Below, one piece after another: positions 2,510 through 57,900 of a stretch of DNA of 64,000 nt. Within the stretch, counting starts at the first letter, position 1, and the number at the start of each line of letters is the position of its first letter. Source of the DNA: an uncultured virus (IMG/VR IMGVR_UViG_3300019366_000026). Lineage: Duplodnaviria; Heunggongvirae; Uroviricota; Caudoviricetes. The translations under genes and the position numbers were made by a program. Under the pieces are notes generated by a model. That model had not been told where the DNA came from and searched no databases. It was given only the letters and a program-made list of their open reading frames with translations. The DNA is taken from the IMG/VR virus record IMGVR_UViG_3300019366_000026. One strand, 5' to 3'.

Positions 2510-3709
2510 ATGGTGACAACCAAGATTTACTACGACAAGCGGGCAATAAAGAAAGATGGAACAGCCCCGCTGAAAGTGGCGATAACCAAGAATGGTTCTA
2601 CAGCCTACATTTCTCTGAACATTGCGCTCACTGAACGTGAATGGGACCCCATTAAACGATGTATCGTCAATCATCCAAATCGACAATTCTTCAACACATA
2701 CGTTGGCAAGCGTAAGCTGGAAATTGATGAACTCGTTCTTTCCATGGATGCCAAAAAGGAACTTTCGGGTAGTGTGACCGAAATAAAGAATAAAATCCTC
2801 GCGTTGCTGAATCCAACCGAGGAACGGCCGAACAACCTCTTCTGCGATTGGCTTCAAAAATTCGCCGGCAATAAGAGTGGCCGCACTCGAGAAATTTATC
2901 TCGCGACTTTCGAGCGAATCAAGGCGTTTGCCCCAAAAGGATATGATCAGCTTACGTTTGAGCAGATGAATCTCGAATGGCTGACGGAGTTCGATGTATT
3001 CCTCGCCAAAACATCGCCGGCACGTAACGCACGAAATATCCATTTCCGGAATATTCGCGCTGTGTTCAATTACGCAATCGATAACGACATCACTTCTGCC
3101 TACCCTTTCCGTAAGTTCAAGATGAGATATGAAGAAACACGGAAAAGGTCTATGTCGGTGGAGGCCCTGCGCAAAATCATATTCACACCATTGGAAGAAC
3201 ATCTTGAGAAGTACCGTGATTTCTTCCTGCTTTCGTTCTACCTCATCGGAGCGAATGTCATCGACATCTGCAATGCAGAGGAGGTGCAAGACGGGTATCT
3301 CATATATCGTCGTGCCAAGACCCATAAACTCTATACTATAAAGGTGGAGCCTGAGGCGGCCGCCTTGATTGAAAAATATGCCGGGGAGAAGCAACTTCTT
3401 AATTATCTCGACAATCATAAGTCTTACCGCACATTCTATAATTGTGTCGTCCGTGGCCTGAAAGGTGTCAAAGACGCGCTCAATGCAATCGATGACGGCA
3501 TACATTTTAAGGAGCTGACTACCTACTGGGCCAGACATACATGGGCTACAATCGCTGCTGAACTGGACATTCCGAACGCAACTATTGCAGCCGCTCTGGG
3601 ACACTCTTACGGCAACGCCACCTCTGCTATCTACATCGACAAGGATAGACGAAAGGTTGATGTCGCTAATAGAAAGGTTATTGATTATGTGATGACCGGG
3701 CATGTGTAG
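2510..3709 (+). CDS. int: Tyrosine recombinase / phage integrase
   Basis: N-terminal arm-binding-type domain, SAM-like middle domain, C-terminal TYWARHTWAT..ALGHS..Y catalytic region; adjacent to tRNA. Confidence 0.93.
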   Translation: MVTTKIYYDKRAIKKDGTAPLKVAITKNGSTAYISLNIALTEREWDPIKRCIVNHPNRQFFNTYVGKRKLEIDELVLSMDAKKELSGSVTEIKNKILALLNPTEERPNNLFCDWLQKFAGNKSGRTREIYLATFERIKAFAPKGYDQLTFEQMNLEWLTEFDVFLAKTSPARNARNIHFRNIRAVFNYAIDNDITSAYPFRKFKMRYEETRKRSMSVEALRKIIFTPLEEHLEKYRDFFLLSFYLIGANVIDICNAEEVQDGYLIYRRAKTHKLYTIKVEPEAAALIEKYAGEKQLLNYLDNHKSYRTFYNCVVRGLKGVKDALNAIDDGIHFKELTTYWARHTWATIAAELDIPNATIAAALGHSYGNATSAIYIDKDRRKVDVANRKVIDYVMTGHV

Positions 3710-13108: not shown

Positions 13109-14368
13109 TTACAGGTTGAATACTTCTTTGAATTTATCCACGAGGTCGAGTTTCTCCCACGTGAACTGCTCGACAACTTTGTCGCCGAACTTCTCGCGGT
13201 TGGGTATGCGCCCGAAATGACCGAAAGAAGCAGTTGCTTGGTAGATGGGATTGCGAAGTTTGAGGCGATTGATGATACCGGCCGGAGTCAAGTCGATTTC
13301 GTTGGAGATGATTTCGGCTATTTCAGCGTCAGAGATTGCCACATGGCTGTTGACGGTGGAAACATATACGCTGACAGGTTTCGCGACGCCGATAGCGTAA
13401 GCCACCTGGACCAGAACCTGATCGGCAACACCTGCGGCCACGAGGTTCTTTGCGATGTGGCGTGCCGCATAAGCAGCCGAACGGTCAACCTTGCTGGGGT
13501 CTTTGCCGGAGAAGGCACCACCACCGTGCGCCCCATGGCCGCCGTAGGTATCGACAATGATTTTGCGGCCGGTCAAGCCGGTGTCTCCATGGGGGCCGCC
13601 GATAACGAACTTGCCGGTGGGATTGACATGCAGAATGAGGTCATTGTCGAACAGTGCGGCGATTTCGGGAAGCAGATGCTCTTTTACGCGAGGCAGAAGA
13701 ATTTCTTCGATGTCCTTTTTGATGCGGTGAAGCATGAGTGTGTCTGCGTTGTCCTGAGTAAGCCCGTGTTCCGGCTTGATAAAGTCGTCGTGCTGTGTCG
13801 AGATTACGATGGTGTCAATGCGGACCGGGCGATTGGTTTCATCATCGTATTCAACTGTTACCTGACTCTTCGAGTCGGGGCGCAGATAAGTCATAACCTT
13901 TCCTTCTCGGCGGATCTTTGAAAGCTCCTGAAGAAGTTTGTGGCTGAGATACAGTGAAACGGGCATATACGTTTCGGTTTCATCGCAGGCAAATCCGAAC
14001 ATCATACCCTGATCGCCGGCTCCCTGCGCTTCTTCGGTTTTCCTGACTACGCCACGATTGATGTCAGGGCTTTGGCCGTGCATTGCATTGAGTATGCCAC
14101 AAGATTCGGCGTCAAATTTGTAGTCACTCTTGTTGTAGCCGATGCCGTTAATGACGCGTCGGGCGATATCCTGAACATCGACATGAGCTGTCGAACGGAA
14201 TTCGCCGGCAATAATGACCTGCCCGGTGGTGACGAGGGTTTCACACGCGACTTTGGCGTGTTCGTCCTGGGCAAGATAGGCATCCACGATAGCGTCAGAA
14301 ATCTGGTCTGCCACTTTATCGGGGTGCCCTTCCGAAACTGATTCGGAGGTAAAAAGATATTTTGCCAT
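13109..14368 (-). CDS. metK: S-adenosylmethionine synthetase (phage-borne)
   Basis: [35 protein letters not shown] signatures; full length. Confidence 0.98.
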
Positions 14369-14400
14369 GTGATTTTGTGATTGTTTTTATTATTTGTGTT

Positions 14401-14408
14401 CAAAGTTA
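14401..14408 (-). promoter_or_regulatory. -7 promoter element upstream of metK and lysis genes
   Basis: TAACTTTG 33 nt upstream of the metK ATG; lacks the operator boxes. Confidence 0.55.
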
Positions 14409-14434
14409 GGCACATATAATAATGTGGACTTAAC

Positions 14435-14481
14435 AAAAAGCGCCCGACAAAGTGCAAGCGTTTATGCAGTTTGCCGGGCGC
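14435..14481 (-). terminator. Intrinsic terminator between nucleosidase and metK
   Basis: GCGCCCGGCAAA...TTTGTCGGGCGC then TTTTT on the minus strand. Confidence 0.75.
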
Positions 14482-14524
14482 AGGGAGCAGACACTCCTAT
14501 CGGGGATATTGGCGTGGTAGGCCT

Positions 14525-15052
14525 TTAGGGTCTTTGCATAATCCCATCAACCAATGAACGGACCTGCGTCCATATTTCATCAGTTGACGTATGTATGCTT
14601 TCCGCATACTCATCGACATCAAGATTATCACTTACAATCTTGATAGCACCGAGCACATTGAAAGGAAATGCGACGATGTAGTTGAGTTCCATGTCGTATA
14701 GCACCGGCTCATCGCGCTCGTCTTCGGTAACAAAGTCGTTGCTGGTATAGCAATCGTATCCTTTGTTTCCTAACGGGCAACCATTACGGTAATCCTTGAA
14801 TCCGACAGTATGATCGATGAAGCGATATGAACGGCGCACTTTTGTAACAGTACCTTTGGGGAGTGTGTTGCTTCCACTGAAGCCGATGTTGATTATTGGC
14901 TCATAGTGCTTTTTCCGAACGAATGAAATCAGGAGTTCAGAGCACTTCTTTATCACGTTAGAAGCACCTACTCCCGTTTGAACGATTTTATACTCGCCGA
15001 GGTACTTTTTGGCAAGTTCAAACTCCTGATCAGTTGCTACCAGTATTATCAT
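14525..15052 (-). CDS. MTA/SAH nucleosidase / nucleoside phosphorylase-like protein
   Basis: TGVG, IINIGFSGS, DME and KIVSD motifs of the PNP_UDP_1 fold. Confidence 0.75.
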   Translation of the reverse strand: MIILVATDQEFELAKKYLGEYKIVQTGVGASNVIKKCSELLISFVRKKHYEPIINIGFSGSNTLPKGTVTKVRRSYRFIDHTVGFKDYRNGCPLGNKGYDCYTSNDFVTEDERDEPVLYDMELNYIVAFPFNVLGAIKIVSDNLDVDEYAESIHTSTDEIWTQVRSLVDGIMQRP

Positions 15053-19532: not shown

Positions 19533-20027
19533 TTACTGCTCGGTTTCGTAGGCGGACCAGTCCACCGAGGATTTCTCTTGCCATTCTTCGTTGCAGACGG
19601 CAATTTTATGATTGCTGATGGCGGCTGCCACGCCCATAATTTCCTCAGCCTTTGTAAACTCATAGAATACCGGGCTACCATCAGGATATTCACCGAGATT
19701 GAGCGTTACCGGGAGTTGCATAATTCCGGCCTGCATAGCCACGAGCATACCCGTGAGGTCGCTCTTGCGTTCTTCGGTATATTCGACCGGCAGACCATTC
19801 CATTCAAGGCCATAGCGTAGTTTATGCGCACTCTCTGCTTCTATTACCTGAATGATAATAGCCTTTATTTCATCGAGGCTTGGACGATGGTCAAAACGCT
19901 TTCGCCAGTTCCACCCCTGCTCCGGGTTGTCGCTGTCATTGCCGAAGCCATAGATGACCTCGTATTTGTTACGGCCGACACGGAACAATCCGTCCTGCCG
20001 TTTGGGAGAACCATATACTTTTTCCAT
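19533..20027 (-). CDS. DUF4376-like tail-associated protein
   Basis: 164 aa, FDHRPSLDEIK and terminal VDWSAY; translationally coupled to RT. Confidence 0.6.
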   Translation of the reverse strand: MEKVYGSPKRQDGLFRVGRNKYEVIYGFGNDSDNPEQGWNWRKRFDHRPSLDEIKAIIIQVIEAESAHKLRYGLEWNGLPVEYTEERKSDLTGMLVAMQAGIMQLPVTLNLGEYPDGSPVFYEFTKAEEIMGVAAAISNHKIAVCNEEWQEKSSVDWSAYETEQ

Positions 20028-21703
20028 TATTGTTTGGGCTTTAGGAGTTTGACACCGAGATCCTTTTCTAATGCGGCCAGTTCTTCGTCACTGGGTCGTA
20101 CAAACCCATATTTCTGTGCAGAAACTAATCTCGGTACGGGATATTGGGAGTCGTAGTTCATTTCGATCGCCGCGAAGAACGGCATTTGCCCGATTTCTTC
20201 CATCTGCTCCAATCGTGTTCCAAACTCTTTATCCCCAGTCCACATTTTGCAGAGTAGCTTATTATGGATAATTTGCACGAGATATTTTTCCTTCGGCAAC
20301 GGAATACGATCGGTCCTTTCACCACGTATTTCCGCAGCCTTTACGAGCGCTTCGTACTTTTCTACTTCACGTTTGGGTGGTAGATATTCGTAATCCACAA
20401 TGATTACGCCCTGGCGGTCGAAATCACGAGGATACTTTTTTACCCCACGGAAATTCTTCTTTCCGTTAAGGTTAACCGGGGGGAGGTCGAAATTTCCAAT
20501 GTCTTCCATTTTCCTCTTATGTTTAAGTTTTCTGAATTCGTTTGGTGTGATTATTTTCTTCAGCAGATGCCGACAATCAGCATGAGCGGCCATCCCGAAG
20601 AACGAACCTATCAATTTCTGCCTTCGTTTTCTTGATTGCACTTTGGCGATACGTCGGCAGAATTTCTGCTTTGAGCGTTTGCGAATACGCGAGTAGGTAT
20701 CGTATGTTATTTCGCCATCATCTTCAGTGCTTTCTGTCAAGAATGTGTTGTATCCAAGGTAGTCAAGTCCGCACAACATTGGTCTGACAGCCTCAGTTGG
20801 CTTTATGCTCAATCCGAGTTCGTCAAGAAGTGAAACGAGATAATCACGCAGCAACCACAACTCTTTGGCAGAAGCAGCGCATATCACTATGTCATCGCAA
20901 TATCGGTAGTAGTGATAGCGAATCTTCTTGCCGTTGATTCTTCGTTCTCCGATACCACAGACAACAACACCGGTTCCGATACCGTTATCTGGGTCTTCAA
21001 TCTGATGATATTTCACCTGCTGACACATCTTATGATCGATGTCGCTGAGGTGGAGGTTGGCGAGGCATTGCGATGAACGCAGCCCCTTTGATAGCCCTTG
21101 CTTGAGCAGAGTAATGAAGTTGTACATCATCGGCAACAGAACCGGATCAGAAGTGTATTGGCGTGTCTGCGCCATCATCAGTCCCTGGTTTATACTGTCG
21201 TAATAATGGAAGATGTCGCACTGATAGTACATCTTCATATTCTCCGGGTCTGCGAGAATATCTTCTTCAACAATCTGGTGGAGCCAGTGCATACCTCGGC
21301 CTTTGATGGAGGCTGCGGTATTTGTGATGAGTGTCGGATATGTGTACTTCTCGAACGGAACCATTATTGCATGGCAACCGACACGGTGGAATACACGAGG
21401 ACATTGCACAACTCTTACCTTGAAACCGTCCTTGACTACCAACTCACGGAAGTCGGCTTCTGTAATTCTAAATTGTCCACTTTTAAGCAACTTGTAAAGT
21501 CGCTTGCAGTACGCGGCTTTCTTGGGCCGGATATTATCCCTTTGTTCAGCGCACTCAAGATGTCCTACGACATAGTCAAAGGCCTCCTCTATGTTCTCCA
21601 TCGTGGCGATTTCGGACATGAGGTCGGGAATGGGGAACTGCACCGCACCATTGGCACGGGGTAACGCCACATTCATAAATGGTATGTCTTCAATCTTTGT
21701 CAT
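20027..21703 (-). CDS. DGR reverse transcriptase with C-terminal extension
   Basis: GRGMH, QCDIFHYYDSI, GLSKGLRSSQ (DGR-type SQ), YYRYCDD, DYLGY; adjacent to TR and VR. Confidence 0.95.
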   Translation of the reverse strand: MTKIEDIPFMNVALPRANGAVQFPIPDLMSEIATMENIEEAFDYVVGHLECAEQRDNIRPKKAAYCKRLYKLLKSGQFRITEADFRELVVKDGFKVRVVQCPRVFHRVGCHAIMVPFEKYTYPTLITNTAASIKGRGMHWLHQIVEEDILADPENMKMYYQCDIFHYYDSINQGLMMAQTRQYTSDPVLLPMMYNFITLLKQGLSKGLRSSQCLANLHLSDIDHKMCQQVKYHQIEDPDNGIGTGVVVCGIGERRINGKKIRYHYYRYCDDIVICAASAKELWLLRDYLVSLLDELGLSIKPTEAVRPMLCGLDYLGYNTFLTESTEDDGEITYDTYSRIRKRSKQKFCRRIAKVQSRKRRQKLIGSFFGMAAHADCRHLLKKIITPNEFRKLKHKRKMEDIGNFDLPPVNLNGKKNFRGVKKYPRDFDRQGVIIVDYEYLPPKREVEKYEALVKAAEIRGERTDRIPLPKEKYLVQIIHNKLLCKMWTGDKEFGTRLEQMEEIGQMPFFAAIEMNYDSQYPVPRLVSAQKYGFVRPSDEELAALEKDLGVKLLKPKQ

Positions 21704-21859
21704 AAGCCTTCAGGCGCTTCAGTGATGTTCCTGCTTTCTTCCTTGCGGAGAGGGTTGCAGAGGCTCGTATCCCTCGCAGAGATGGTTGGCTCAGCCCGTG
21801 AGCCTCCAGGGTCTTGCGATTATATTGTTCCAAAGGGGACATTCATTGCGTCTTAATGT

Positions 21860-21970
21860 GAGCCGAGAGCCGTTGTTCGTGTTCGAGTTCGAAGAAACGT
21901 TGTTCGCGTTCGCATAAACGAGACCGCCATTCGCATTCGCGTTGTTGTTCGCACGACCGACAACACGGCA
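21860..21970 (-). ncRNA. DGR template repeat (TR)
   Basis: 111 nt, 12 AAC/AAT codons (reads CRVVGRANNNANANGGLVYANANNVSSNSNTNNGSRL), intergenic between target and RT. Confidence 0.96.
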
Positions 21971-22058
21971 CCGTGGGATACTCTACCTTTTCGTCCTCGC
22001 TTTCGCGGGACGTATTTCGTTAAACATTTTGGTTAATTATCTCTGGATTTGGCAGTCA

Positions 22059-22084
22059 CCCCGGCTTCCTTGCGTCAGCCGGGG
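22059..22084. other. GC-rich hairpin downstream of VR1 (candidate DGR cruciform or terminator)
   Basis: CCCCGGCT-N10-AGCCGGGG. Confidence 0.5.
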
Positions 22085-22100
22085 GATAATACCTTTTTCT

Positions 22101-25100
22101 TCACGCAACTTGCTGTTCCTCATCGTCATCAAAGATGATTTTGCCACTGAAGGCGAGCCGAGAGCCGTTGCTCGCGCTCGAGAACGAAGAAACGTGGTTC
22201 GCGAGCGCATAAACGAGACCGCCAAACGCATTCGCGAGGTGGCTCGCACGACCGACAACACGGCACCTACTATTAGAATACTCCCATTTGTCGGAGTAAT
22301 TCTTGTTCCATGCTGAGTTATCATTGGAAGTCTTGCCGGGCACAACGTCCATATATCGGCCGTGGCGAACACGACTGATACAATAGCCTGAGCCCTGCGG
22401 TGTGGCTTGTACGGAGCGCTCGGTGTCAGTTACCACATCATAAATGCGGAAGCGGGTATCAAGCGGATAGGAGGCGTCTTCGGTCGGGCACTTTTTTGAT
22501 TTCCAGTCCTTGAACGATGATACATTCATCGCAACGTGGGCCATCCATTCGTAGTTACAAGCCACGAAGTTCTGAATACCGAACATAAGGTTACCGACAT
22601 TAGAGGTTACGCCGGTTACTGTTCGGTTGCCCCAAGCATTGATGTTCTTGCCGTTCAAGGTCTGACTACCGCAAGTATAGCCTGCGCTACAGCCACGGCC
22701 GCAGATAGCCTGAATGTCGCGTGTGCCAGTCAACTCCATTATGATGTTGGCGAGGTCTTTTGACTGCTCATAAGAGATAGCGTGGAAGCCCTCACCTCGC
22801 ATTTCGCAGAGGTTGATGAAGTCCTGGCGAGTGCGGTGCAGACCAGTTGGCGGAGTGATGTTGGTAACACGGCCGTTCTTGTCATAGGTCCAGTCGGGGG
22901 AAGTTGAAGCTGTGCCGTCGCCGACCGCCGCCTTTGTGCCGGATACCGAACGAGCGCGACCCAAAGCGTCTATTCCGACACCATAGATACCCATAAGGAA
23001 CTCCTTGCGGAATACCCAGTCCGGCTCAATGGCTTCGACGGAAGCACTGTCAACAGTGATAGCTTCCTGGTCTCCGCAACCCATCTGCGATGTAAAGCGG
23101 AACTTCACGGCACCGGCAGGAACATCGCAGAAGATGTAATCCTCTCCGGCCACGAAGTCAAACTGCGCATTGCTGACAGCCATTTTGAAGATTGACATAA
23201 TCTTTCCGTCGGCATCGAGGAACACACAGCCGAGGTCGGTGGAGTTTACGCCAGGCCAGCGAACCTGCTTCATACCCTCTACGTTGATTTCGTACACGTC
23301 GCAGGCGGCATTAAGAGTATGCGTGGGCACTCCACCAACAGCCATCCCTGTCACTACAAGGGCTGCATTGGACTCAACAAGCAAGTCGGAGAGTTTGGAG
23401 CGGTTGGTTTTGCTTGCCGTTGATATAGGTTCATCAGTGCAGGTGGAACGTATGCCATACTTCTGCTGATTCTTGAAGTCGTTGACTCCTTTGTACCAGT
23501 GATTAGGAACGTGCTTGAAGAAGTCGTAGCCCATACCACTGCTGTCGGTCAGGTCAACAGACGCTCCGTCCTCCATGAAGTTGTAATCATCATCGCTCAG
23601 GCGCTTGCAGTGCATAGCATTGTCGGCCGTGCTGAACGAACCTCTGACACCGTGGCTCAACTCTTCCAGACGCTTGAAATGACCGCTCGGCACGAAGTCG
23701 TTGTTGAAGCGATAGCCGGTGTTATTGTCAAGGTTGGAAATATTCTCGCAGTCATCTACGGTATCGTCATAGACTACCATAGAGAACTGGGAGTTATGGA
23801 GTGTCAACTGCGGGAAATACTTGCCGAAGTTGGCGAGCGCGGAATCTTCGATGAGGTCAGACATAATCCAACGCCCGGTAATGCCGGAGCATTGTCCGCT
23901 TTCTTCGTAAGCCTGGCCTGATGGGTCAAGGCCGATGGCGCCGCTGTTCTTCAGGGCCGAAAGGATAGAAGATGGAGCTGTGATGTTGACGTCCGGCAAA
24001 CGAATATAGCGGATATTGGACGCTGACACAATTCCGTTGATGAGTGTCATCGGATCGATGTTCGGACAGCCTGCAAGCATAAGGCGTATCACACTGCTCA
24101 TACCTTCGATTGTTAGACCACCGGGATATGAAAGATTCGGGAGGTTGACAAACGAAAGGTCAGTCATTGTGGCCGGCAACTGAAGTGTGGAGATAGGCGA
24201 TGTTTCTGCCAACGTGATTGTTGACAGGTCCGAGCCTTTCGCATAGACGGTTTCCAGTCGAGGGCACTTGGCGGCATTGATAGTCGTTACCTCGGTGGTT
24301 CGCACGTCAAGGTGTTTGAGGAACGGCAGATCGCCAAGGTTCATATTTGTCAGGAATCCAGTGTTACCCGGCGACAGCCTCCACGCCTGCTTGTGAATAT
24401 CAGAGCCTATCACAATCTTCTCGGCGAGTTTCATCTGCGAGAACTGGAAGTTCGGGTCAATGGAAATTTGCGAGAGATCAATCTCACTCATCTGGTCGGC
24501 CTGATAGATGTAAAGCAAGATGTTATCGCCATGCTGGAAGTCGGTAAACACGCCCTGCTCTCCGGCCTTGAGGTACATACCCTGCGTCACATTGCCACCG
24601 TCATTGCCGATACCGTAGTAGCCGGACTTACCCGCACGGAAGCGGATAACTGCTCCAGTCTTGGCACCGATACGGCCGCCGAGGACGTGGCTTGCGTCTT
24701 TGAAGTCGCCGGTCTGATAGTAGCCGTCGCGTATACGCCAACGCTGCTCAATGAAGCGAGGCAGAGCCTGACGGCCCGAACCGTGGAGGGCATAGTAATA
24801 GATATCGGTGTAAATCTCCGAATACTTGATGTACTTGCGCTCACAGTCGTAGGTACATACCACCTTCGGCCACATTTCAATGCGCTTCTGCACGAAGTAG
24901 TACATAGCACCCTTGGGCGAGAACGGACCTGCACCGATACCGTCAACTTCGGGGAGTGTACGCATCATACCGACAACACCCGGAAGCGTGAGTGTGCCAC
25001 CTCCGGCATCGGCAACCATTTCCTGATTGTCGCAGCGACGGAGATTGTTCCAAAGGATTGAGCCACGGCCGGCATAGCACTTGTCATCTTCGGCAGGGTC

Positions 25101-46518: not shown

Positions 46519-46726
46519 TTTTACTGATTTTGTCTGTTAATGATTGTGAGAAGCGGAAGTGCCAACAAGGGTCATCAATATATGTATCGAATATCTTGCT
46601 GCAATCATTGCAGATGTCGTGGGCGTGTGCATCACAGACTTCGCTTAGGTCGCAAGCAGCGCAAACACTATAACAGACTGTTGGCACGGCTTCGTACACC
46701 TTACCGTCAATGATTATTCCGTTCAT
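46502..46726 (-). CDS. Cys-rich small phage protein
   Basis: 74 aa MNGIIIDGKVYE...CAACDL. Confidence 0.6.
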   Translation of the reverse strand: MNGIIIDGKVYEAVPTVCYSVCAACDLSEVCDAHAHDICNDCSKIFDTYIDDPCWHFRFSQSLTDKISKNERMD

Positions 46727-47679
46727 AATTCAATGATATTATCGGTATTCCACGAGAGCGAAATGTCACCGCTAACAAGACATTTGAATGTGTTGATCTT
46801 GCGTTCGCCAATCTCATTCTCGCATATTTGCTCTGACACAGTGCTTCCGATATTCCAATTTACGATGATAGGACACGGTGTTGGAATAAGGAAATATCGT
46901 ACAAATCCGAGTGTCTTAGGATTCTCGAAGATGGTATAGTTGTTAGAGTATCGTTCAATCAATTCTGTGAACAGTTTGATATATTTCTCGTCCGGCAGGA
47001 CAAGCGCATCTCCGATGTTTTGAGAATTGACGCTGAATGAATCCTTGCGGATTATGTTGCTGAGGCGTATCTCATCAACAAAGGATATGTCGCGTAGATG
47101 TTTCTGCAACGCCTCTATGTTGTCGAGATTGCCTCGCCATACGTTGGTGTTGACTCTGACCTTGATGTTCGGGTTATGAATTTTGATTGTATCATATACC
47201 CAACGCAGCTCATCAAGCGTCATAAAATCCTCGTTATGGAATGAAATATTGATGCCTTCAACGCCATAGTCAGAGTCCACAAGAGCCTTGATGAAATCAT
47301 TATTGCTCTTTAGCTTGATTCCGTTGGTGGTAATCCTAACTTTACCGAGTGCCTTGAAATTACAATACTTCATTGTGCGCAGTTCCTTGATTAAGTCGAG
47401 AATAGCGGGATGAAGTAATGGCTCACCACCGAGAATAATAACCTCAGGCTCATTGTTGATGTAGCCCACAAGTGATTGAATATTACGGATAGCCTTGTCA
47501 ATAGGAAGGTGTTTGCTGTGGTCGGTGGCAGAGTTGATGCAGTAGGGGCAGGAGCACTGACAGGCGTTGGTAGCTACCACACTGATATAGGCATTTTGGT
47601 TTACTAATCCCCATTTGCAGTTTTCGTAAACATTGTTTTGCTTGAAGATTTCAAGTGAGTCTGTTTTGATTGTTTTCAT
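46723..47679 (-). CDS. Radical SAM protein
   Basis: CQCSCPYC (CxxxCxxC), GGEPLL, TTNG. Confidence 0.9.
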   Translation of the reverse strand: MKTIKTDSLEIFKQNNVYENCKWGLVNQNAYISVVATNACQCSCPYCINSATDHSKHLPIDKAIRNIQSLVGYINNEPEVIILGGEPLLHPAILDLIKELRTMKYCNFKALGKVRITTNGIKLKSNNDFIKALVDSDYGVEGINISFHNEDFMTLDELRWVYDTIKIHNPNIKVRVNTNVWRGNLDNIEALQKHLRDISFVDEIRLSNIIRKDSFSVNSQNIGDALVLPDEKYIKLFTELIERYSNNYTIFENPKTLGFVRYFLIPTPCPIIVNWNIGSTVSEQICENEIGERKINTFKCLVSGDISLSWNTDNIIEL

Positions 47680-50430: not shown

Positions 50431-50673
50431 TTACCATTGCTTGTCGCCGAGTTCTCGGGCAACAACATACTTGCCATTCTCGTCCGGAGTCATTTCGACA
50501 AGCGACACTGATCCGTGAGCGTTCATGACTCTGCTGTCATATTTCCAGACTTCGTAGTTGTGGCGAGCCATTTCAAAATCGGCGTAGATTTCGTGCCGGT
50601 CCACATCTGACAAACCGGCTCTTACATCGAGCCAGTATACTTTCGGTGGCTCAGGTTCGTGAAAGTCGAACAT
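50431..50673 (-). CDS. Hypothetical phage protein
   Basis: 80-aa ORF. Confidence 0.55.
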   Translation of the reverse strand: MFDFHEPEPPKVYWLDVRAGLSDVDRHEIYADFEMARHNYEVWKYDSRVMNAHGSVSLVEMTPDENGKYVVARELGDKQW

Positions 50674-50719
50674 AATATTTAAGGGGTTTTAATTGTGAAT
50701 ATCTTATTTGCATTTATCT

Positions 50720-51136
50720 TCAGTTGAGTTTGATGAAGTTGGAAAACCGTTCTCCTATGTCGGTTGCAACCCGCGCCCAACCATATAGGGCAACCAGAAG
50801 TATTCGCAACCCGACCTGAGGGATATAACCATCTTCTTCTCCAATGCGAGAATATATTCGGGGATATTCCTGTGCGAACTCAAATGCCGCATGAAGCAGC
50901 CCTCCATACGTAAGTTTTTTAGTAGAACTGTCGGCTTTATCCTTGAAGATTATATCACGGCCATCAAGCAATGCTGAAACAACCTCATCATAGTAAACAT
51001 CGCCGTCAATGGGATTGCATATCGTCAACTCCTCGGCAAGGCCAAAGTTGTATCCGTAGTCGAGAGCGCAGGTCAGCAATGATAATAGCTCTTGACAGTC
51101 TATAGTGGGGATTGTCGTTTTTGTCAGCGTGTTCAT
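50720..51136 (-). CDS. Hypothetical phage protein
   Basis: 138-aa ORF. Confidence 0.6.
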   Translation of the reverse strand: MNTLTKTTIPTIDCQELLSLLTCALDYGYNFGLAEELTICNPIDGDVYYDEVVSALLDGRDIIFKDKADSSTKKLTYGGLLHAAFEFAQEYPRIYSRIGEEDGYIPQVGLRILLVALYGWARVATDIGERFSNFIKLN

Positions 51137-51142
51137 GGCGCA

Positions 51143-51352
51143 TCAAATTAAGGTTCGCAACATATTGCGAATATCCTTCTCGCTCCATTTTGACAAATCG
51201 CCCTCGAATTTTTCTTTTTCCCATCCACATGGGATTTCATAATCAACGCGAATTATATTAGGGGAATCCTGCGACACAAAGGCAATCGCCTCGCCTTTGG
51301 TATTTCGGGCTTCATAGCCGGTGGCTGTCTTGACTAATTTGTATCTTCTCAT
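51143..51352 (-). CDS. Hypothetical phage protein
   Basis: 69 aa, first gene after promoter copy 7. Confidence 0.6.
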   Translation of the reverse strand: MRRYKLVKTATGYEARNTKGEAIAFVSQDSPNIIRVDYEIPCGWEKEKFEGDLSKWSEKDIRNMLRTLI

Positions 51353-51380
51353 ATGTCCTATGGTTTTTGATTATAAAAAC

Positions 51381-51461
51381 ATCTTATTTGCTTATACAAA
51401 AGTAAGCAAAAATAATCATATACGCAAGCATTTGAGCATTTATTTTAATCGTATCTGCAAT
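51381..51461 (-). promoter_or_regulatory. Promoter/operator module copy 7
   Basis: Boxes at 51381, 51415, 51448; TACTTTTG. Confidence 0.8.
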
Positions 51462-51638
51462 TTTCTCGCCTGGCCTAGAGCGTATTCAGCCTAATTTGAT
51501 TACATTTGCGCGTTGGCACTTGGTTCCATAGTTATCTGCCGACCCATTATTCGTGCAGCAACCGGGCTAAATAAGTGAGCAACTGGCCTACCGCTTTAGG
51601 AGTTGGCAGGCTACGCTCAAATGGGTAGCACATACAAC

Positions 51639-51785
51639 ATGGAACAAATCCTCAAGCATTTCATTGATGTTCTAAACTTCATCGCTACCGTTATTACAAT
51701 CTGGAGTTTTTTCACTAATGGAAAGGGTAAACGGAAGAAACGGCGTAAATCTAACAAACGCCCAATGCCCCCAAAAGGTAAATAG
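51639..51785 (+). CDS. Small single-TM peptide with basic tail (type I toxin-like)
   Basis: 48 aa MEQILKHFIDVLNFIATVITIWSFFTNGKGKRKKRRKSNKRPMPPKGK; own TACATTTG promoter element (51501) and terminator. Confidence 0.6.
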   Translation: MEQILKHFIDVLNFIATVITIWSFFTNGKGKRKKRRKSNKRPMPPKGK

Positions 51786-51807
51786 CAATTCCACAGCCTG
51801 CCAACGA

Positions 51808-51833
51808 GGAGAGAGGTAACTCTCTCCTTTTTT
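51808..51833 (+). terminator. Intrinsic terminator
   Basis: GGAGAGAG-GTAA-CTCTCTCC-TTTTTT. Confidence 0.85.
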
Positions 51834-51893
51834 ATTACAACAAAGGGACTGACCTCACGGACAATCCCTGAAATATCAATATCTTATTTGCAT

Positions 51894-52736
51894 TTAAGCG
51901 AGTTGGTAAACGGCTTTTAGTGTGTCGCAGAATGTGTTGAGGATTCCAACATCCCTGATGAGGGATTTACGTTTCTCTGAATTCATCCCTGATCGTCCTG
52001 CCGCAGTAAGGCAATGAGCATTCACCTCAGAAAGGGCTTCATGGAATTCCGGTGCAGGCACGTATAAAGTGAAGTATTCATCTAATGTCGGGTAACATTC
52101 CGGCACAATAGCGGGTGCAACATTTTGTTTGGTTGGAAGAATGTTTGTTACCCATTTTCGGTATGAGTTGGCTTTGGATTTCTTGCTTTCGATTATGACG
52201 GATAACAATCCATCGTAATCTACAAATAATTCTCCTGCGGTGCGTTTCATTCTCTTTACAAGAAAATCTTTCGTAGCGCATACATTCTGCCGAACTATGC
52301 GTTCGCCCTCTTTTATTAGCAATTCAAGGCTTCTGCATATATCTGATAGGCAATACCACAACTGGTCTGTATCGAATGTAACGTGCAGTTCGCCAAAACC
52401 ATCTGACTTGAACAATTCAATACGCGGCTGTGAAGCAAGAGCTTTAGATGTGTGGATGGCCGGTTTTTCCTTTGAGAATAAGGCGGATATAAATGCCGTC
52501 ATTATTTCCTTTTCTTCAGGTTTCGTTAGATAGCTCTTGATTATGTTGCAATCCTCAATCGTCAGTTTATAGTATGGACATTCTTTGCTGAAACCGTGTT
52601 TCATTCCGATTGTCCGCATCGCCTTGGTAAACGAATATCCGGTTTTGGCTTCGATCCGTCGCAAGCTGATTAGGAAATTGCCGTGGTTTTTCCTGCCTAA
52701 TGCTCTTGCGACATCCATTGAAGTTGTCTCTTGCAT
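51894..52736 (-). CDS. Antirepressor-like protein (Rha-like plus BRO-N-like)
   Basis: TSMDVARALGRKNH (Rha-like) and FGEL..WYCLSDICRSL..YRKWV (BRO-like). Confidence 0.7.
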   Translation of the reverse strand: MQETTSMDVARALGRKNHGNFLISLRRIEAKTGYSFTKAMRTIGMKHGFSKECPYYKLTIEDCNIIKSYLTKPEEKEIMTAFISALFSKEKPAIHTSKALASQPRIELFKSDGFGELHVTFDTDQLWYCLSDICRSLELLIKEGERIVRQNVCATKDFLVKRMKRTAGELFVDYDGLLSVIIESKKSKANSYRKWVTNILPTKQNVAPAIVPECYPTLDEYFTLYVPAPEFHEALSEVNAHCLTAAGRSGMNSEKRKSLIRDVGILNTFCDTLKAVYQLA

Positions 52737-52803
52737 ACGGGTGTGGGATTAGAGGTAGCCGGGCGAACCGGCTACCATGATTGTTGTTTTTGATGTGGGG
52801 ATT

Positions 52804-53016
52804 TTAGATTGCTCCGCCGTTAACCTCTTCGCAGAAGGGAACGAATGTGGCGATGTTGATAGACTCGCAGGCTGCCACGGCCGCTTCTTCGTTATGGCCG
52901 TAATCCATCATGCAGTCCATGAGGAAGTCCTCAAAAGAGATGCCCTCGGCTTTGGCTTCGGAGTTGTTGTACTTGTTGATCCAGTTCTGGGCGAGTTCTT
53001 TGCTGTAAGTTGCCAT
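52804..53016 (-). CDS. Small acidic protein (alternative in-frame start at 53151)
   Basis: MATYSKELAQ... 70 aa. Confidence 0.55.
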   Translation of the reverse strand: MATYSKELAQNWINKYNNSEAKAEGISFEDFLMDCMMDYGHNEEAAVAACESINIATFVPFCEEVNGGAI

Positions 53017-53192
53017 GAAGTTTATTTGTTTAGGAAGTAAAAAACCGAGGGAGGGTGTCCTACGAAGCGCTTCATGTCGCTCCGCCGGGGCGTTTCCGCT
53101 TGTCCGCACCGTCCTCGGTCTGAATGTCTTTGATTTGCTGGTTGTTGTCATGAAGTTTTTTGTTTTAGGAGTTGTGCCTCAATGATTTAATC

Positions 53193-53273
53193 ATCATATC
53201 CGCATATACAAAATTACAAAGAAATAATCATCTATGCAAATTTTCAGGGAAAAATTTTAATCATATCGGCAAA
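53193..53273 (-). promoter_or_regulatory. Promoter/operator module copy 8, back-to-back with a rightward promoter
   Basis: Boxes at 53193, 53227, 53260; TAATTTTG (-); TAAATTTG (+) at 53302-53309. Confidence 0.75.
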
Positions 53274-53357
53274 TTTTTCTCTGACTTTCGCAAAAAATGA
53301 TTAAATTTGCGGAGAGTTTCGTAAAATGCAGAGGCATATACCCATACGACACTCAAG

Positions 53358-53518
53358 GAACATTATAGCCTAATCGTCATCGAAACTACCACATTGATAA
53401 AGAAAAAGGCTAATAGATACTATCCTATTGGGAGTAGTGTATCCGGTCGCCATTGGCGTAGGACACTCCTATGGGATAGTAGGCTGTGGTAGGCCTCGAT
53501 GACGTTAGGCAGTTGTTC
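53358..53518 (+). ncRNA. Candidate long hairpin RNA / structured leader
   Basis: Nested complementary arms GCCTAA.CGTCATCGA..CTACCACA / TGTGGTAG...TCGATGACGTTAGGC and TACTATCC..GGAGT / ACTCC..GGATAGTA. Confidence 0.6.
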
Positions 53519-53584
53519 TACGCCATTTTTGCGTGACGTCGGATAGTTGCTGAATAACGTGATTGAAAGCAAATATGAAGACCA

Positions 53585-54085
53585 ATGGTAACTATCAGAC
53601 ATAACATCGACCCAGTCAAATTCAAATTCTTCTGGACCAAGTACGTCCGGGAGGGAGATTTATCACATCATTGCGCCGCTTGCGTGAAAGGCTCTTGGAG
53701 CAAGAAGTTCTGCGCAGCATGGAACAAAGACCCAAAGACTGACGATCCGCTACCATTTTCACCCACGATTACTTTTGATGAACAGCCACAAGGAAGTTTC
53801 CGAGCAATTTATATTTGCGGAGTATTCAAGCAAGGCTTCTCAACCAAGAAAAACTATCCCCACAACGTGCACTGTGCAATCATACCGGCCGAGGGTCGAA
53901 CCGATGTCTATGAATTCGATGGTTGGCGCATTGAGATTGACGGGGGATATGTAGATCGGATTCCCACCGAAGAAGAACTCCCGGAGCGATTCTTTAACAC
54001 CCCTTACGATTATCACTACTATACCTGCCGTATCTTCCGCTGGATGGTGGGGCACTTTTACCCGGAACTATTGAAAACGAAATGA
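53585..54085 (+). CDS. Hypothetical protein with Cys/His motifs
   Basis: 166 aa; HHCAAC, YICG, HNVHC. Confidence 0.7.
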   Translation: MVTIRHNIDPVKFKFFWTKYVREGDLSHHCAACVKGSWSKKFCAAWNKDPKTDDPLPFSPTITFDEQPQGSFRAIYICGVFKQGFSTKKNYPHNVHCAIIPAEGRTDVYEFDGWRIEIDGGYVDRIPTEEELPERFFNTPYDYHYYTCRIFRWMVGHFYPELLKTK

Positions 54086-54086
54086 T

Positions 54087-54650
54087 ATGAAGAAGTTACT
54101 TACCCTCCTGATATGCACCATTATCGGTATCTCTGCCTTTGCTCAAAAGATTGTGTCTGATGACACTCCGGCCGATGGGAATCGCTACATATTTTGCTCA
54201 AAAGAGAATGTTGGAGGATTCTCTGATCGCATGAAACTATTTATTGGCTTGAGTTATATGCAGCCTACGGAAGGCTCCCCGCTGTATTCTCTTTGCATAC
54301 AGCTGAATTGTGGAGAAGTTACAACTATACACAAAGGTGGCCGGATGCTAATAAAAACCACGAATGGCGATGTGATTGAATTATCCACATACATGGGTGG
54401 GTCTGCTGATTTGAAATCAATTTCCGGAGTAAACATATGGGAGGTTTCCGCCCAATACTCAATCACGCCTGATCAGTTGGCATTACTTGAGAAAGGCGTT
54501 ACAAAGATTCGGATAGAATTAGGGGATTCCAAAACTTACGAGAAAGAATGGATGAAAGATAAGATCGGGAAAATACTTGCCAAAGAATCATCCCTTATCC
54601 AAGATGCGATAAGGACAAATTCTAAGGCTTCGTTCTCCGAGGACTTCTGA
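54087..54650 (+). CDS. Secreted/periplasmic protein
   Basis: Sec signal peptide (AFA-Q), 187 aa. Confidence 0.75.
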   Translation: MKKLLTLLICTIIGISAFAQKIVSDDTPADGNRYIFCSKENVGGFSDRMKLFIGLSYMQPTEGSPLYSLCIQLNCGEVTTIHKGGRMLIKTTNGDVIELSTYMGGSADLKSISGVNIWEVSAQYSITPDQLALLEKGVTKIRIELGDSKTYEKEWMKDKIGKILAKESSLIQDAIRTNSKASFSEDF

Positions 54651-54696
54651 TAACAGTATCGAACGGATCGAGGGTCGACGGATAGCCGCCGGCCCT

Positions 54697-54930
54697 TTAT
54701 ATTTCCACATTACTGCGGAAATGGTCGATGATATTGTAGATTGTGCGCTGGGACTTACCGTATTTGTCAGCAAGAACCGACACACAATAGATAGTCTTGT
54801 GACTATGCTTCTTCATCGCGCGGAATTCTTCATAGATTTGCAGAGAATCTATGTCGTTCACGCTGATTTTGTTGTTCTTCAGTACCTGAAGAAGACTCTG
54901 GTTGGCTTTAATAAGTTCGTAGCAGTTCAT
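54697..54930 (-). CDS. Small HTH protein
   Basis: LADKYGKSQRTIYNII helix-turn-helix. Confidence 0.7.
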   Translation of the reverse strand: MNCYELIKANQSLLQVLKNNKISVNDIDSLQIYEEFRAMKKHSHKTIYCVSVLADKYGKSQRTIYNIIDHFRSNVEI

Positions 54931-54934
54931 ATTA

Positions 54935-57900
54935 TCAGAAGTTATCTAAGTTTTCAATCATATCTACCCGGTCTTGTGCCTCGGTAATCTCCACGACGGA
55001 CACAACCGGCTTTATCTCTCTTGCGGCTTGCGAGAATGAATCCGTAAGCATTTCAGCATTGTCAACGCTTTCGTAGGAATTGGCTACCTGGATAGGCACT
55101 CCGCTTCCGATACTGTTCATTGCCGCCAACACCGGCTCAAACATCTTGGTCGCTCTTGCTGTCATCACATATTCGCCGTTTGAAAGCATTGCAGGTATGC
55201 TGTCGCTCGTTCCATCGCCCGGGCCATTCACTTTACCACCCTTGGCGAATTTCGCGCTCTTAACAGTTGAAATTGCTGTGGCGATATTAGCCAATACAGT
55301 GGCGACTGTGGTAGCAATAGCAACAAGATTACCAGGGAACGGCACTGCTGACGCCGATGCGATACCGGCGGAGAGAGCCTTACCTGTATCAATGGCTATC
55401 TGAGCCAAAGCGATAACTTTAGCCATTTTCGCAGCCGCGGAGCCTTCCTCTCCGACGGCTTCCAATAGACTGATAAGACTATTGGAAACTGCACGGGCCG
55501 CTTGGGCTTTTGCCTGCTCGTTCTTGACATAGGCTTCATTGATGGCAACCTGCTTATCAAGCCAATTCTGTTTAGCGTTATTCTGTTCTTGAATCCATTC
55601 TTCTTCGGTTTGTGTAGATAATTGTCCTCTTTCAAGCAAATTTTGGTACTCTTGCTCTGCCGCATCACGTTCAGTCCTTAAACGTTCGGCCTCATAGCCC
55701 CCAATAGATTGTAACTTCCTTTCTTGGTCGGCTTCCATTTCTTCATCGGTCATGGTTCGCCAACCCTCACGACGGAGTTGCTTTTCGGTTTCGGCTATGT
55801 CAAGTTGGTCGATCTCATTCTGGAGAACTACTTTCTGCTTTTCGTAAATTTGAGTTTGATACTCATCAACGGCCGCATCTTTTTCTTTGTTGTATTTCTC
55901 CCGAATGGCGGCAAGAGCAATTTGACGTTCCTCCTCATTCTCATAATCGCGTTGGGCCTGCGCGAGTTCCAACTCCTCCTGCTTCTGAAGTTGCTCCATC
56001 TTAAGGGTAAGTTCAGCATTGGAGCCTTCTTCTATGGCACGAAGTTGAAGTTCAATGAGTTTGGACTGATGTTCAACACGCTTCTTCAACTCCTCGGTAT
56101 CGAATTCGGCCATGGCGGCTTCCTTCTGCTTTCCGAGAGAGTCTATGATACTGAGAATTGCAGTTTTGCTCTGCTCAGTCAACGTTTTATCTTCCGCCAG
56201 TTTCTTTTTATAGTCCGCAATCTGACGGTCGTAGGACAGAGCCAACTGTTTGCGTCGAGTTTCAGCGGCTTCTTTGGTTATCTTCAGCAGTTCATCTTCC
56301 GCCTTACGAAGTAATTCGGCCTCAACCTTGGCAGGATCATTACCGCTTTTGGAAGTTGTTTTGGAAGAACTTCCACCTCCGCTCTTACCGCCTCCGCCTT
56401 TCTTCCCATTGCCGTCATTATTAGTGGTTACAGAAGTATCGACAGTCGCTTTAGCCTCAACTGGAATCTCAATCTTAGGGAGCTTCTTGTCAAGGCTATC
56501 CCAGGCTTCTTTTGTGCTGGCTACCGTGTCATTCACGATATTCTTGAGGGCCTTACCAGAGGCTGAGCGAAATTTCTCCCAACCGGCAGAGAATGTATCC
56601 CAGTTCAGTGTAAAAGCGCCCTTTATCATGTTACCAAGTCCGACAATCTCGTCCACAATCAATCCAAGCACATTCTTGACTACTGACCACAGGATTTTGA
56701 ATGTGTTTCCGATAGATGCGACAATTCCACGGACTAATAGAGATTCGTTATATAACTCAATGAACCAGTTGCAAACATCTACTATTCCTTTGATGATTGC
56801 AGTAATACCCTTGTTGACAAATGTTTTGGCTTGCGTCATCATTGACTCAAACGTGCCACCCGTGAGGTCAAATAAACCGGCTATGGCATTGTCGAGCTCG
56901 ACCTGGCTCTGCAACTGTTCTTCTTGCAGGCGGCCGAGTTCCCCGGACTTCTCTTTAACCTCGTCCATGCTCACGCTCATATCTTTGAGCGTGGTAAGAT
57001 ATTTGTAACCGGCATCTTGACCGGGGCCTCCGAAGATATTGGCAACTGCCTCGCTGGCTACCTTGGAGCTTTCAGGCAACTCTGCCAGTTTTCCACTGAC
57101 TTGCTGCATTACCTCAAAGGTTGTCATTGAGCCGTCTGCCAGTTTCTTCTGTATCTCAGTTGAGTTCAGACCTATCGCCTTTAACGAACCGGCCGTAGCA
57201 TCAGACATTTCTCCAAGACGGATATTGGCCTCCTTTATAGTATCGAGAGCCTTATTCGACACAATGCCCATTTTGCTGGCTTGTGTCGTGATGGCGATGA
57301 AACCTTCCGCACTTACGCCTGCCTCTTTGAAATAAGCCGGGAACTCTTCAAGGCTCTCCAAATATTTGCCGTTGGCATTAGCACCAGACACAAAACCGTC
57401 TTGAACCAGTTTCAAGGCTTCATCAACGCTTATTCCAAATTGATTGGCGACATTGTTCGCGGCCGTCAAGACGCTTTCAAAATCAGCCCCGAATGTGTCA
57501 GCGGTGGCCTGAACCTCATTTCTGAAGTTCTTGAGGTCGTTGCCACTTTTACCAGTAAGATCAGAGGTAAGTCGAGTGGCTTCAACTAATCCCTTGTTGT
57601 AGTCGAACCACGCTTTGGCAGCCATTATAGTTCCAGCAATTCCAAGTATTGCTAAAACATATGGGTTGGCAAGCAACGTCATCAAGGTCTTGCCTAATGC
57701 CTGAATCTTGACTTTTAGCCCGTCGATAAATGATCCGGCAGAATTGTTTGCCAGATTCTGAAGAGAACTACCGAACTTTGTACTTACACCCACCAACTCT
57801 CCGAGAGAATCAATAAGACCCTCGCTTTGGTTTTCATGCTCGGCTATTACCTCATTGTTTTCTTCAATCTTCTTGTTGAGCGCTTCTATAGCGTCAGCGG

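Follow-up and report, generated by a model that had tools for sequence, protein, structure and literature searches.

A phage hairpin belongs to a Bacteroidales leader RNA family with two mutually exclusive conserved folds

The DNA analyzed here, called the window throughout, is a 64,000-nt stretch from an uncultured Caudoviricetes virus (IMG/VR IMGVR_UViG_3300019366_000026). On its + strand, a long hairpin lies between the octamer TAAATTTG, which we take to be a perfect Bacteroidetes −7 box, and two ORFs encoding proteins of 166 and 187 aa (Table 1). The initial annotation had placed a rightward promoter at ~53302 and, 3′ of it, a structured + strand RNA with a hairpin of ~160 nt. Promoter and RNA are both borne out: the + strand of 53340–53540 folds with −75.2 kcal/mol, far below the mean of −50.5 kcal/mol (sd 4.5) obtained for shuffled sequences (z = −5.5), and none of 200 shuffles was equally stable. 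The − strand of this segment is nearly as stable (−70.1 kcal/mol, z = −5.7). Assembled contigs of RNA runs cover 50500–57500 flatly (4 of 19 runs with the region) and are uninformative on transcript ends or strand. In the same assemblies, a short intergenic repeat at 51377–51427 is assembled into small contigs of its own, with higher depth, and similar AT-rich blocks are found near 53200–53290 and upstream of the leader in two related loci (L013 and L014).

The 3′ arm of the hairpin carries the motif GACACTCCTAT-N13-GTGGTAGGCCT. When up to three mismatches are allowed, the motif occurs exactly twice in the window, at 53462–53496 and, 39 kb away as initially annotated, at 14490–14524, both times on the + strand. 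The chance expectation for such an 11-N13-11 motif is 0.00 (100 shuffles), and a search of the window for further copies of either core word found none besides these two sites. The second site, which we call the half-copy, lies among leftward genes: reading leftward, the stop codon of a 175-aa ORF is followed by the half-copy, a terminator-like hairpin, metK, a holin gene and an amidase gene, which confirms the placement originally given for it.

Table 1. Coordinates of the leader, its surroundings and the remote half-copy (window positions unless a locus is named)
Feature	Position	Strand	Evidence
Presumed Bacteroidetes −7 box TAAATTTG, perfect	53303..53310	+	sequence
H2 5′ strand TAGCCT; partner AGGCTA 53407–53412; overlaps P1 extension	53366..53371	+	Fold 2
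Nested stem of hairpin	53368..53510	+	folding
P1 5′ strand; partner 53496–53510	53368..53383	+	folding; family covariation
Leader element, Fold 1 (P1, core helix, P3, P4, P5)	53371..53509	+	R1; fold z
5′ core AACTACCAC; pairs 3′ core in Fold 1, apical loop in Fold 2	53384..53392	+	
Terminator helix 5′ strand (T5′), common to apical hairpin P5	53454..53465	+	sequence; family covariation
3′ core GGCTGTGGTAGGCC; own small hairpin in Fold 2	53482..53495	+	
P1 3′ strand	53496..53510	+	folding; family covariation
Terminator helix 3′ strand (53514–53525) and U-tract TTTTT (53526–53530)	53514..53530	+	sequence
Putative helix GATAGTTGC / GTAACTATC (53542–53550 with 53588–53596) over first codons of 166-aa ORF	53542..53596	+	sequence reading
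Cargo gene 1, 166 aa, no family match	53585..54085	+	ORF
Cargo gene 2, 187 aa, signal-peptide-like N-terminus	54087..54650	+	PADLOC
metK (13109–14368) with own −7 box TAACTTTG (14401–14408 on +)	13109..14408	−	sequence
Leftward terminator hairpin (14440–14481) and T-run, position-homologous to P5	14435..14481	−	sequence
Remote half-copy; + strand matches 3′ arm, leftward RNA mimics 5′ arm	14490..14524	−	motif match; relatives
175-aa ORF with half-copy in its 3′ UTR (stop codon 14525–14527)	14525..15052	−	stop codon
Further family member, G001:C32 (L187)			
Further family member, G001:C29 (L210)			
Further family match, L183	14895..15021		

The hairpin is one member of a large family of structured RNAs in Bacteroidales and is not private to the phage. 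A pattern of the two most conserved words identifies at least 119 metagenome loci of the family, 80 of which were retrieved, 75 with distinct cores. R1, a covariance model trained on 39 rumen-type members only, detects the window hairpin with 54.4 bits (E = 2e-12) as the sole full copy in the window and recovers 88 members in 90 sources. R1 matches are present in 6 of 25 same-family genomes but in none of 16 single genomes of other families; among 401 genomes of the order, the exact-core pattern was detected in 4, and only four IMG/VR contigs contain the exact-core element. Family members are overwhelmingly chromosomal. In three genomes, housekeeping genes flank the element and one orphan gene, outside any prophage. 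Each genome carries one to three copies, none identical, and all members have diverged. R1 gives 0–2 matches per genome. In the nearest genome (G001), BLAST yields one full copy of the element, and a third, longer copy was found by hand. The two additional full members of this genome lie outside the prophage; one has an interior of ~150 nt and one a variant core. A second genome (G032) has a weak second match (E = 0.018) 4.6 kb from its first.

The family matches no entry that we could find. Rfam 15 returns only a tRNA-Ser for the whole window at the gathering threshold, only a chance snoRNA match on the opposite strand (E = 5.7) for 53250–53620 at E ≤ 10, and nothing for 18 diverse family members at E ≤ 1. 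BLAST of phage records with the hairpin region gave no match. Full-text literature searches with the core strings retrieved unrelated primers only and a keyword search general riboswitch papers; neither turned up an account of the element. The element thus represents a widespread leader RNA family that is apparently undescribed.

Members share the arrangement seen in the window. Of 78 members, 68 have the sequence TAnnTTTG in the 160 nt upstream, compared with 6 occurrences in control windows, and its distance shows a sharp peak at 47–57 nt before the 5′ core. A same-strand ORF follows the element at 62 of 67 loci, starting at a median of 99 nt after the core. Only 14 of these 62 ORF fragments contain a Pfam family, including BspA repeats, C5 methylase, TPR, fimbrillin-like, Big_2, TM2, CD225/GYF, UbiA and Nmad3; many of the other products look secreted and many have no family. 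The cargo genes share no metabolic theme or pathway. A second structure may lie between leader and ORF: in the window, GATAGTTGC and GTAACTATC could pair over the first codons of the 166-aa ORF, and these words are kept in relatives with the 166-aa gene. At rumen-type (type B) loci, the conserved words GUUAGUGC ... GUAUUAAC are found between U-tract and start codon, 10–60 nt past the U-tract; they may form another helix, of which the pairing over the first codons would be the window analogue.

In the first conserved structure, Fold 1, the entire element forms one long hairpin, in which P1 closes a helix between the 5′ and 3′ cores that is topped by P3, P4 and P5. Compensatory changes across relatives, named in the initial annotation as a check on the hairpin, were found in this fold and also in the alternative one described below. 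In the 88-member alignment, which was fitted to the covariance model and is thus biased toward structure, 95.4% of the Fold 1 cells are paired (74.2% after shuffling), 503 cells have both sides changed (135 in shuffles), and the covariation score is 0.546, compared with 0.167 for shuffled sequences and at most 0.107 with slid partners. Family-wide, both sides change in 8 of the 9 P1 pairs, and an independent MAFFT alignment contains double changes in 29–35 of 80 in P1. The core helix covaries as well: CUACCAC/GUGGUAG is replaced by UCACCAC/GUGGUGA in four members, a double compensatory swap. G:U pairs outnumber A:C pairs by 158 to 22, which identifies the + strand, on which the downstream ORF is also encoded, as the one that folds.

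The second structure, Fold 2, is built from helices that are conserved but incompatible with the long hairpin. The initial annotation had suggested a switch in which TGGCGTA pairs with TACGCCA. This pairing is real and longer than proposed, and it corresponds to a family-wide terminator helix (T helix) that covaries in all subtypes. A U-tract is located 12–40 nt 3′ of the core in all 79 members with full flanks, and the 12 nt that precede it pair with the member's own interior, always at the same relative site on the 3′ side of the apical hairpin (median 10 contiguous pairs; at least 9 in 59 of 79). The sequences of the T helix vary between subtypes; within one subtype it is 94.7% paired with both-side changes in 5 of 8 pairs, and a CCAUA helix between tail and internal loop, also in one subtype, is 94.5% paired with both-side changes in 4 of 5 pairs. 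The 3′ core folds on itself into a small stem that covaries (GGCU/GGCC, GGCU/AGCC, GGUU/AACC). On the 5′ side, the stretch just upstream of P1 pairs with the stretch 3′ of the 5′ core to form hairpin H2, with at least six contiguous pairs in 59 of 79 members, compared with 34% for shuffled partners. A further candidate helix, H3, between the P1 5′ strand and the linker, was only 48% paired in fixed columns and is not claimed.

H2, the tail/loop helix and the 3′ core self-fold exclude the long hairpin, and two strands, P5b/T5′ and P1a/H2, are common to both structures. Nearly all conserved bases that are unpaired in one fold have a partner in the other. Fold 1 on the one hand and the T, tail/loop, H2 and 3′ core helices on the other hence define two mutually exclusive conserved folds. 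The T helix encloses about 48 nt and escapes a simple scan for terminators. The stability of Fold 1 exceeds that of the terminator fold by 16 kcal/mol in the window and by a median of 13 kcal/mol in the family (68 members), and the T helix is part of the minimum-energy fold in only 3 of 68 members; termination would therefore need kinetic trapping or a factor.

Prefix folding of the window leader produces H2 first and then the apical hairpin, and Fold 1 appears only after the P1 3′ strand has emerged. This order, together with the stability excess of Fold 1, leads us to read the element as a kinetic switch. We infer that transcription would start a few bases past the −7 box and that the nascent RNA would first fold H2, with the P1 5′ strand held and ACUACCAC in the loop, and second the apical P3–P5 hairpin. 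Two outcomes could follow. If the emerging 3′ core and P1 3′ strand displace H2, the two complementary loops would meet and P1 would zip, completing the long hairpin; because Fold 1 anchors the tail far from the apex, the tail would be held away and the polymerase would read into the cargo genes. If H2 lasts for the ~20 nt until the U-tract, the tail would reach the apex and pair both within the internal loop and along the 3′ side of the apical hairpin, and the resulting helix, abutting the U-tract, would stop transcription. We therefore take the hairpin to be, above all, a terminator/antiterminator leader that acts in cis and belongs to a large chromosomal family, a role absent from the initial annotation. 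That the leader acts in cis is highly probable.

The initial annotation had also suggested that the RNA works together with the Cys/His protein of 166 aa encoded next to it. The product of this gene has no match in Pfam, PHROG, NCBIfam or PADLOC. Its AlphaFold2 model has a pLDDT of 92.9, and neither Foldseek (no PDB match at E ≤ 0.001) nor Atlas (no lead above 0.82) relates it to a known protein. Homologs occur in many phyla. Of 31 genome loci that encode one, only 6 also have the hairpin. It is kept with compensatory changes 5′ of homologs that are 63–99% identical and is missing upstream of more distant ones. Conversely, the 166-aa family is found downstream at only 1 of 80 family loci (of at least 119), and the proposed partnership is therefore not supported, although the switch and the remote match put forward with it were right. 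The protein is tied to the RNA by adjacency in this phage clade alone. A guide-like role of the RNA, also raised in the initial annotation, is likewise not supported. At eight Clostridium loci (L038–L044, L048), a different conserved near-palindrome of the AGTGCAATATAAGTCACT type lies ~60–90 nt upstream of the 166-aa homolog in place of the Bacteroidales leader. For the 187-aa product of the second cargo gene, PADLOC returns the candidate defence family PDC-M59C (E = 7.2e-11).

The half-copy and the element share homology over the portion from the apical hairpin to the 3′ core inclusive. Read leftward, it consists of CCUACCAC, a P3-like stretch, AUAGG, a P4-like stretch and the terminator, and lacks the H2 insert. 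Its leftward RNA would thus combine a 5′ arm mimic with a terminator, in the shape of a 3′-UTR small RNA. The remote match is conserved: the half-copy is present at the same place and on the same strand in seven genomes or records from two phage lineages (G001, G003, G004, G406, G407, G409 and L226; G408 and G410 are too short to score), 33–41 kb from the hairpin, with both on one strand. In the complete proviruses G003 and G004, it directly follows the homolog of the 175-aa ORF and precedes the same terminator and metK; these half-copies end in GGCT instead of GGCC and lack GACAC. The initial annotation had called the 175-aa ORF a nucleosidase. This assignment is a lead only: Atlas gives a PNP_UDP_1 likeness of 0.94, but Pfam, PHROG and NCBIfam contain no match. 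Of 151 same-family genomes, only 2 contain the ORF. Its neighborhood (13109–15052) places a full SAM synthetase gene (metK) beside that of a PNP_UDP_1-like protein, and a radical-SAM gene is found at 46723–47679, which hints at a phage SAM-metabolism module next to the lysis genes.

As the initial annotation had recognized, a leftward transcript of the half-copy would be complementary to the 3′ arm of the leader. The complementarity comprises two exact 11-mers at equal spacing, and in cofolding ~35 nt pair, provided that leftward transcription reaches the site. By binding the leader's 3′ arm in place of the cis 5′ arm, the half-copy transcript could act as a competitor, which would couple cargo expression to leftward transcription. 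To judge from the sequences, such pairing between leader and remote RNA is plausible, with the balance tipped slightly against it. With moderate confidence, we favor the overall reading in which a promoter-proximal cis leader of the Bacteroidales family has the hairpin as its antiterminator fold and the half-copy could compete with it.

The strongest competing explanation holds that the half-copy is decaying or incidental, kept perhaps because it abuts a needed terminator, and that the hairpin works purely in cis. Several observations fit this view. Cofolding of leader and remote RNA gains −4.6 kcal/mol over the separate folds, about the same as with shuffled arms (−3.8 kcal/mol). The remote site is closest to the arm of its own phage in 4 of 4 comparisons, but by a margin of only 1–3 positions of 23–29, and outgroup elements are nearly as close to the remote sites as the own arm is. 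For three chromosomal members with a variant core, a search of genomes and a few virus records found no partner site. The P4b part of the half-copy has lineage-specific indels, and the whole spacer between ORF and metK is fairly conserved, about as well as the half-copy, so that conservation does not single out the half-copy as a target of selection. Yet at this one spot, both the 3′ core and the CCUAU loop persist in two lineages whose 175-aa ORF homologs are only 58–62% identical; these are exactly the blocks conserved throughout the family, which neutral decay would not single out. On balance, we consider an incidental half-copy rather unlikely, and the preferred reading keeps a part for it as a possible competitor of the leader's own 5′ arm.

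The element shares its architecture with attenuation leaders and riboswitch platforms: it is a promoter-proximal 5′ leader followed by a same-strand ORF, and its two exclusive conserved folds share a strand, with one helix placed directly before a U-tract. It differs from them in having no known sensor domain or Rfam family. Moreover, its antiterminator is the entire 140-nt hairpin, its T helix closes a folded insert of about 50–70 nt, and its cargo consists of unrelated accessory genes instead of the genes of one pathway. A riboswitch, in which a small ligand or an ion selects between hairpin and terminator, would account for a complex, conserved two-state leader with a terminator, and the invariant ACCAC/GUGGU helix could line a binding pocket. 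However, the cargo described above lacks a metabolic theme, and the conserved nucleotides that are unpaired in Fold 1 are nearly all paired in Fold 2, so that little is left to form a pocket; ligand control is accordingly improbable. In T-box leaders, a conserved UGGU-containing strand beside the terminator/antiterminator choice pairs with an ACCA-containing strand. The GUGGU strand of the element has the same location and pairs with ACCAC, but this partner is internal to the same RNA and the genes are not related to amino acids. Rfam gave no T-box match for the hairpin region or the 18 members, and the alignments contain no Stem I-like domain or specifier.

Regulation of a leader by a separate RNA has precedents. 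In pT181, pIP501 and pCF10 (Anti-Q), terminator formation depends on a short RNA that is complementary to the nascent leader. Phage P4 carries one sequence in repeated copies, which serve as the CI RNA and as its targets. In contrast to these systems, the candidate regulator here would be encoded in the 3′ UTR of another operon, at the distance given above, and not opposite its target. The direction preferred by the initial annotation was the reverse, control of read-through into metK and the lysis genes. The terminated leader would then be a small RNA whose 3′ arm binds the leftward mRNA shortly ahead of the terminator and modulates read-through into the metK–holin–endolysin genes, or RNase III cleavage, in trans. 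The complementarity of 11 + 11 nt and beyond suits this proposal, as does the GUGGUA sequence that the terminated form would present in a small hairpin loop, and pairing can enter the remote terminator stem. It does so by only 4–5 nt, however, and leaves most of the 12-bp stem outside; metK has its own promoter box past the terminator, and the folded hairpin would have to open without net energy gain. Since the family is mostly chromosomal and acts before its own ORF, a role in trans would be an add-on. We regard this direction of control as slightly less probable still than a riboswitch.

Protein-bound inverted repeats, invertible promoters, folded single-strand recombination sites and miniature transposons would likewise place a long imperfect inverted repeat ahead of varied cargo, and a second half-site on the same strand agrees with a DNA-level feature, but such an origin is barely credible given that one strand folds by the G:U count, that covariation runs along the whole stem and not its ends alone, that a second overlapping structure and a U-tract are conserved, and that genomes hold one to three copies, none identical. 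Two of these candidates are ruled out, a miniature transposon or insertion element by the few, uniformly diverged copies per genome and an invertible promoter by pairing and covariation through the whole stem and the G:U excess.

If this reading is correct, the element defines a large unannotated class of regulatory leader RNAs in gut and rumen Bacteroidales, which would control the kinds of genes by which strains differ, namely those for surface proteins, methylases and toxin-domain proteins as well as prophage cargo. To our knowledge, few riboswitch-like elements are known in the phylum of the Bacteroidales, which is not known to have Hfq-type small-RNA biology. The architecture is unusually explicit, with nearly every conserved base partnered in each fold, and this makes the element well suited as a model of co-transcriptional RNA switching. 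With the phage half-copy comes a testable case of a 3′-UTR RNA acting on the terminator choice of a distant leader. We also consider, as an unlikely extension, that the near-invariant ACCAC/GUGGU kissing loops might serve as a handle for short RNAs that mimic the 5′ arm and set termination in trans, within a Bacteroidales regulon of acquired genes from which the phage would have captured both leader and mimic. In that case, one two-state leader would govern horizontally acquired surface, defence and toxin-type genes, and leftward phage transcription would reprogram the phage's own cargo and possibly host leaders too.

Among phage leaders, the lambda pR′–tR′ late leader needs the Q protein, and the HK022 put RNAs act on the polymerase directly. 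These too are phage leader RNAs whose terminator precedes cargo or lysis genes; the element differs in preceding a rightward two-gene cargo cassette and in having mostly chromosomal relatives. Among Bacteroides RNAs, FopS, of the FopS/GibS family, is described as a 3′-UTR-type small RNA that acts on susC translation start regions and is reported to be deposited in Rfam (PMC11697453). FopS is simpler and has another seed, and it differs by its Rfam entry from the hairpin and the remote site, which match no Rfam family.

Two further features of the phage were noted. A diversity-generating retroelement occupies 20027–22267 of the window. It comprises a 558-aa ORF with a weak RVT_1 match (E = 4.3e-6, under the Pfam cut-off), a 127-nt template repeat at 21846–21972 and a variable repeat at 22141–22267, which is 85% identical and lies in the C-terminus of a 2715-aa ORF. 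The differences between the repeats fall at T on the + strand, that is, A on the coding strand, in 18 of 19 cases. A tRNA-Ser (GGA) at 2210–2298 adjoins a tyrosine integrase gene (2510–3709), and this site is probably one end of the prophage.
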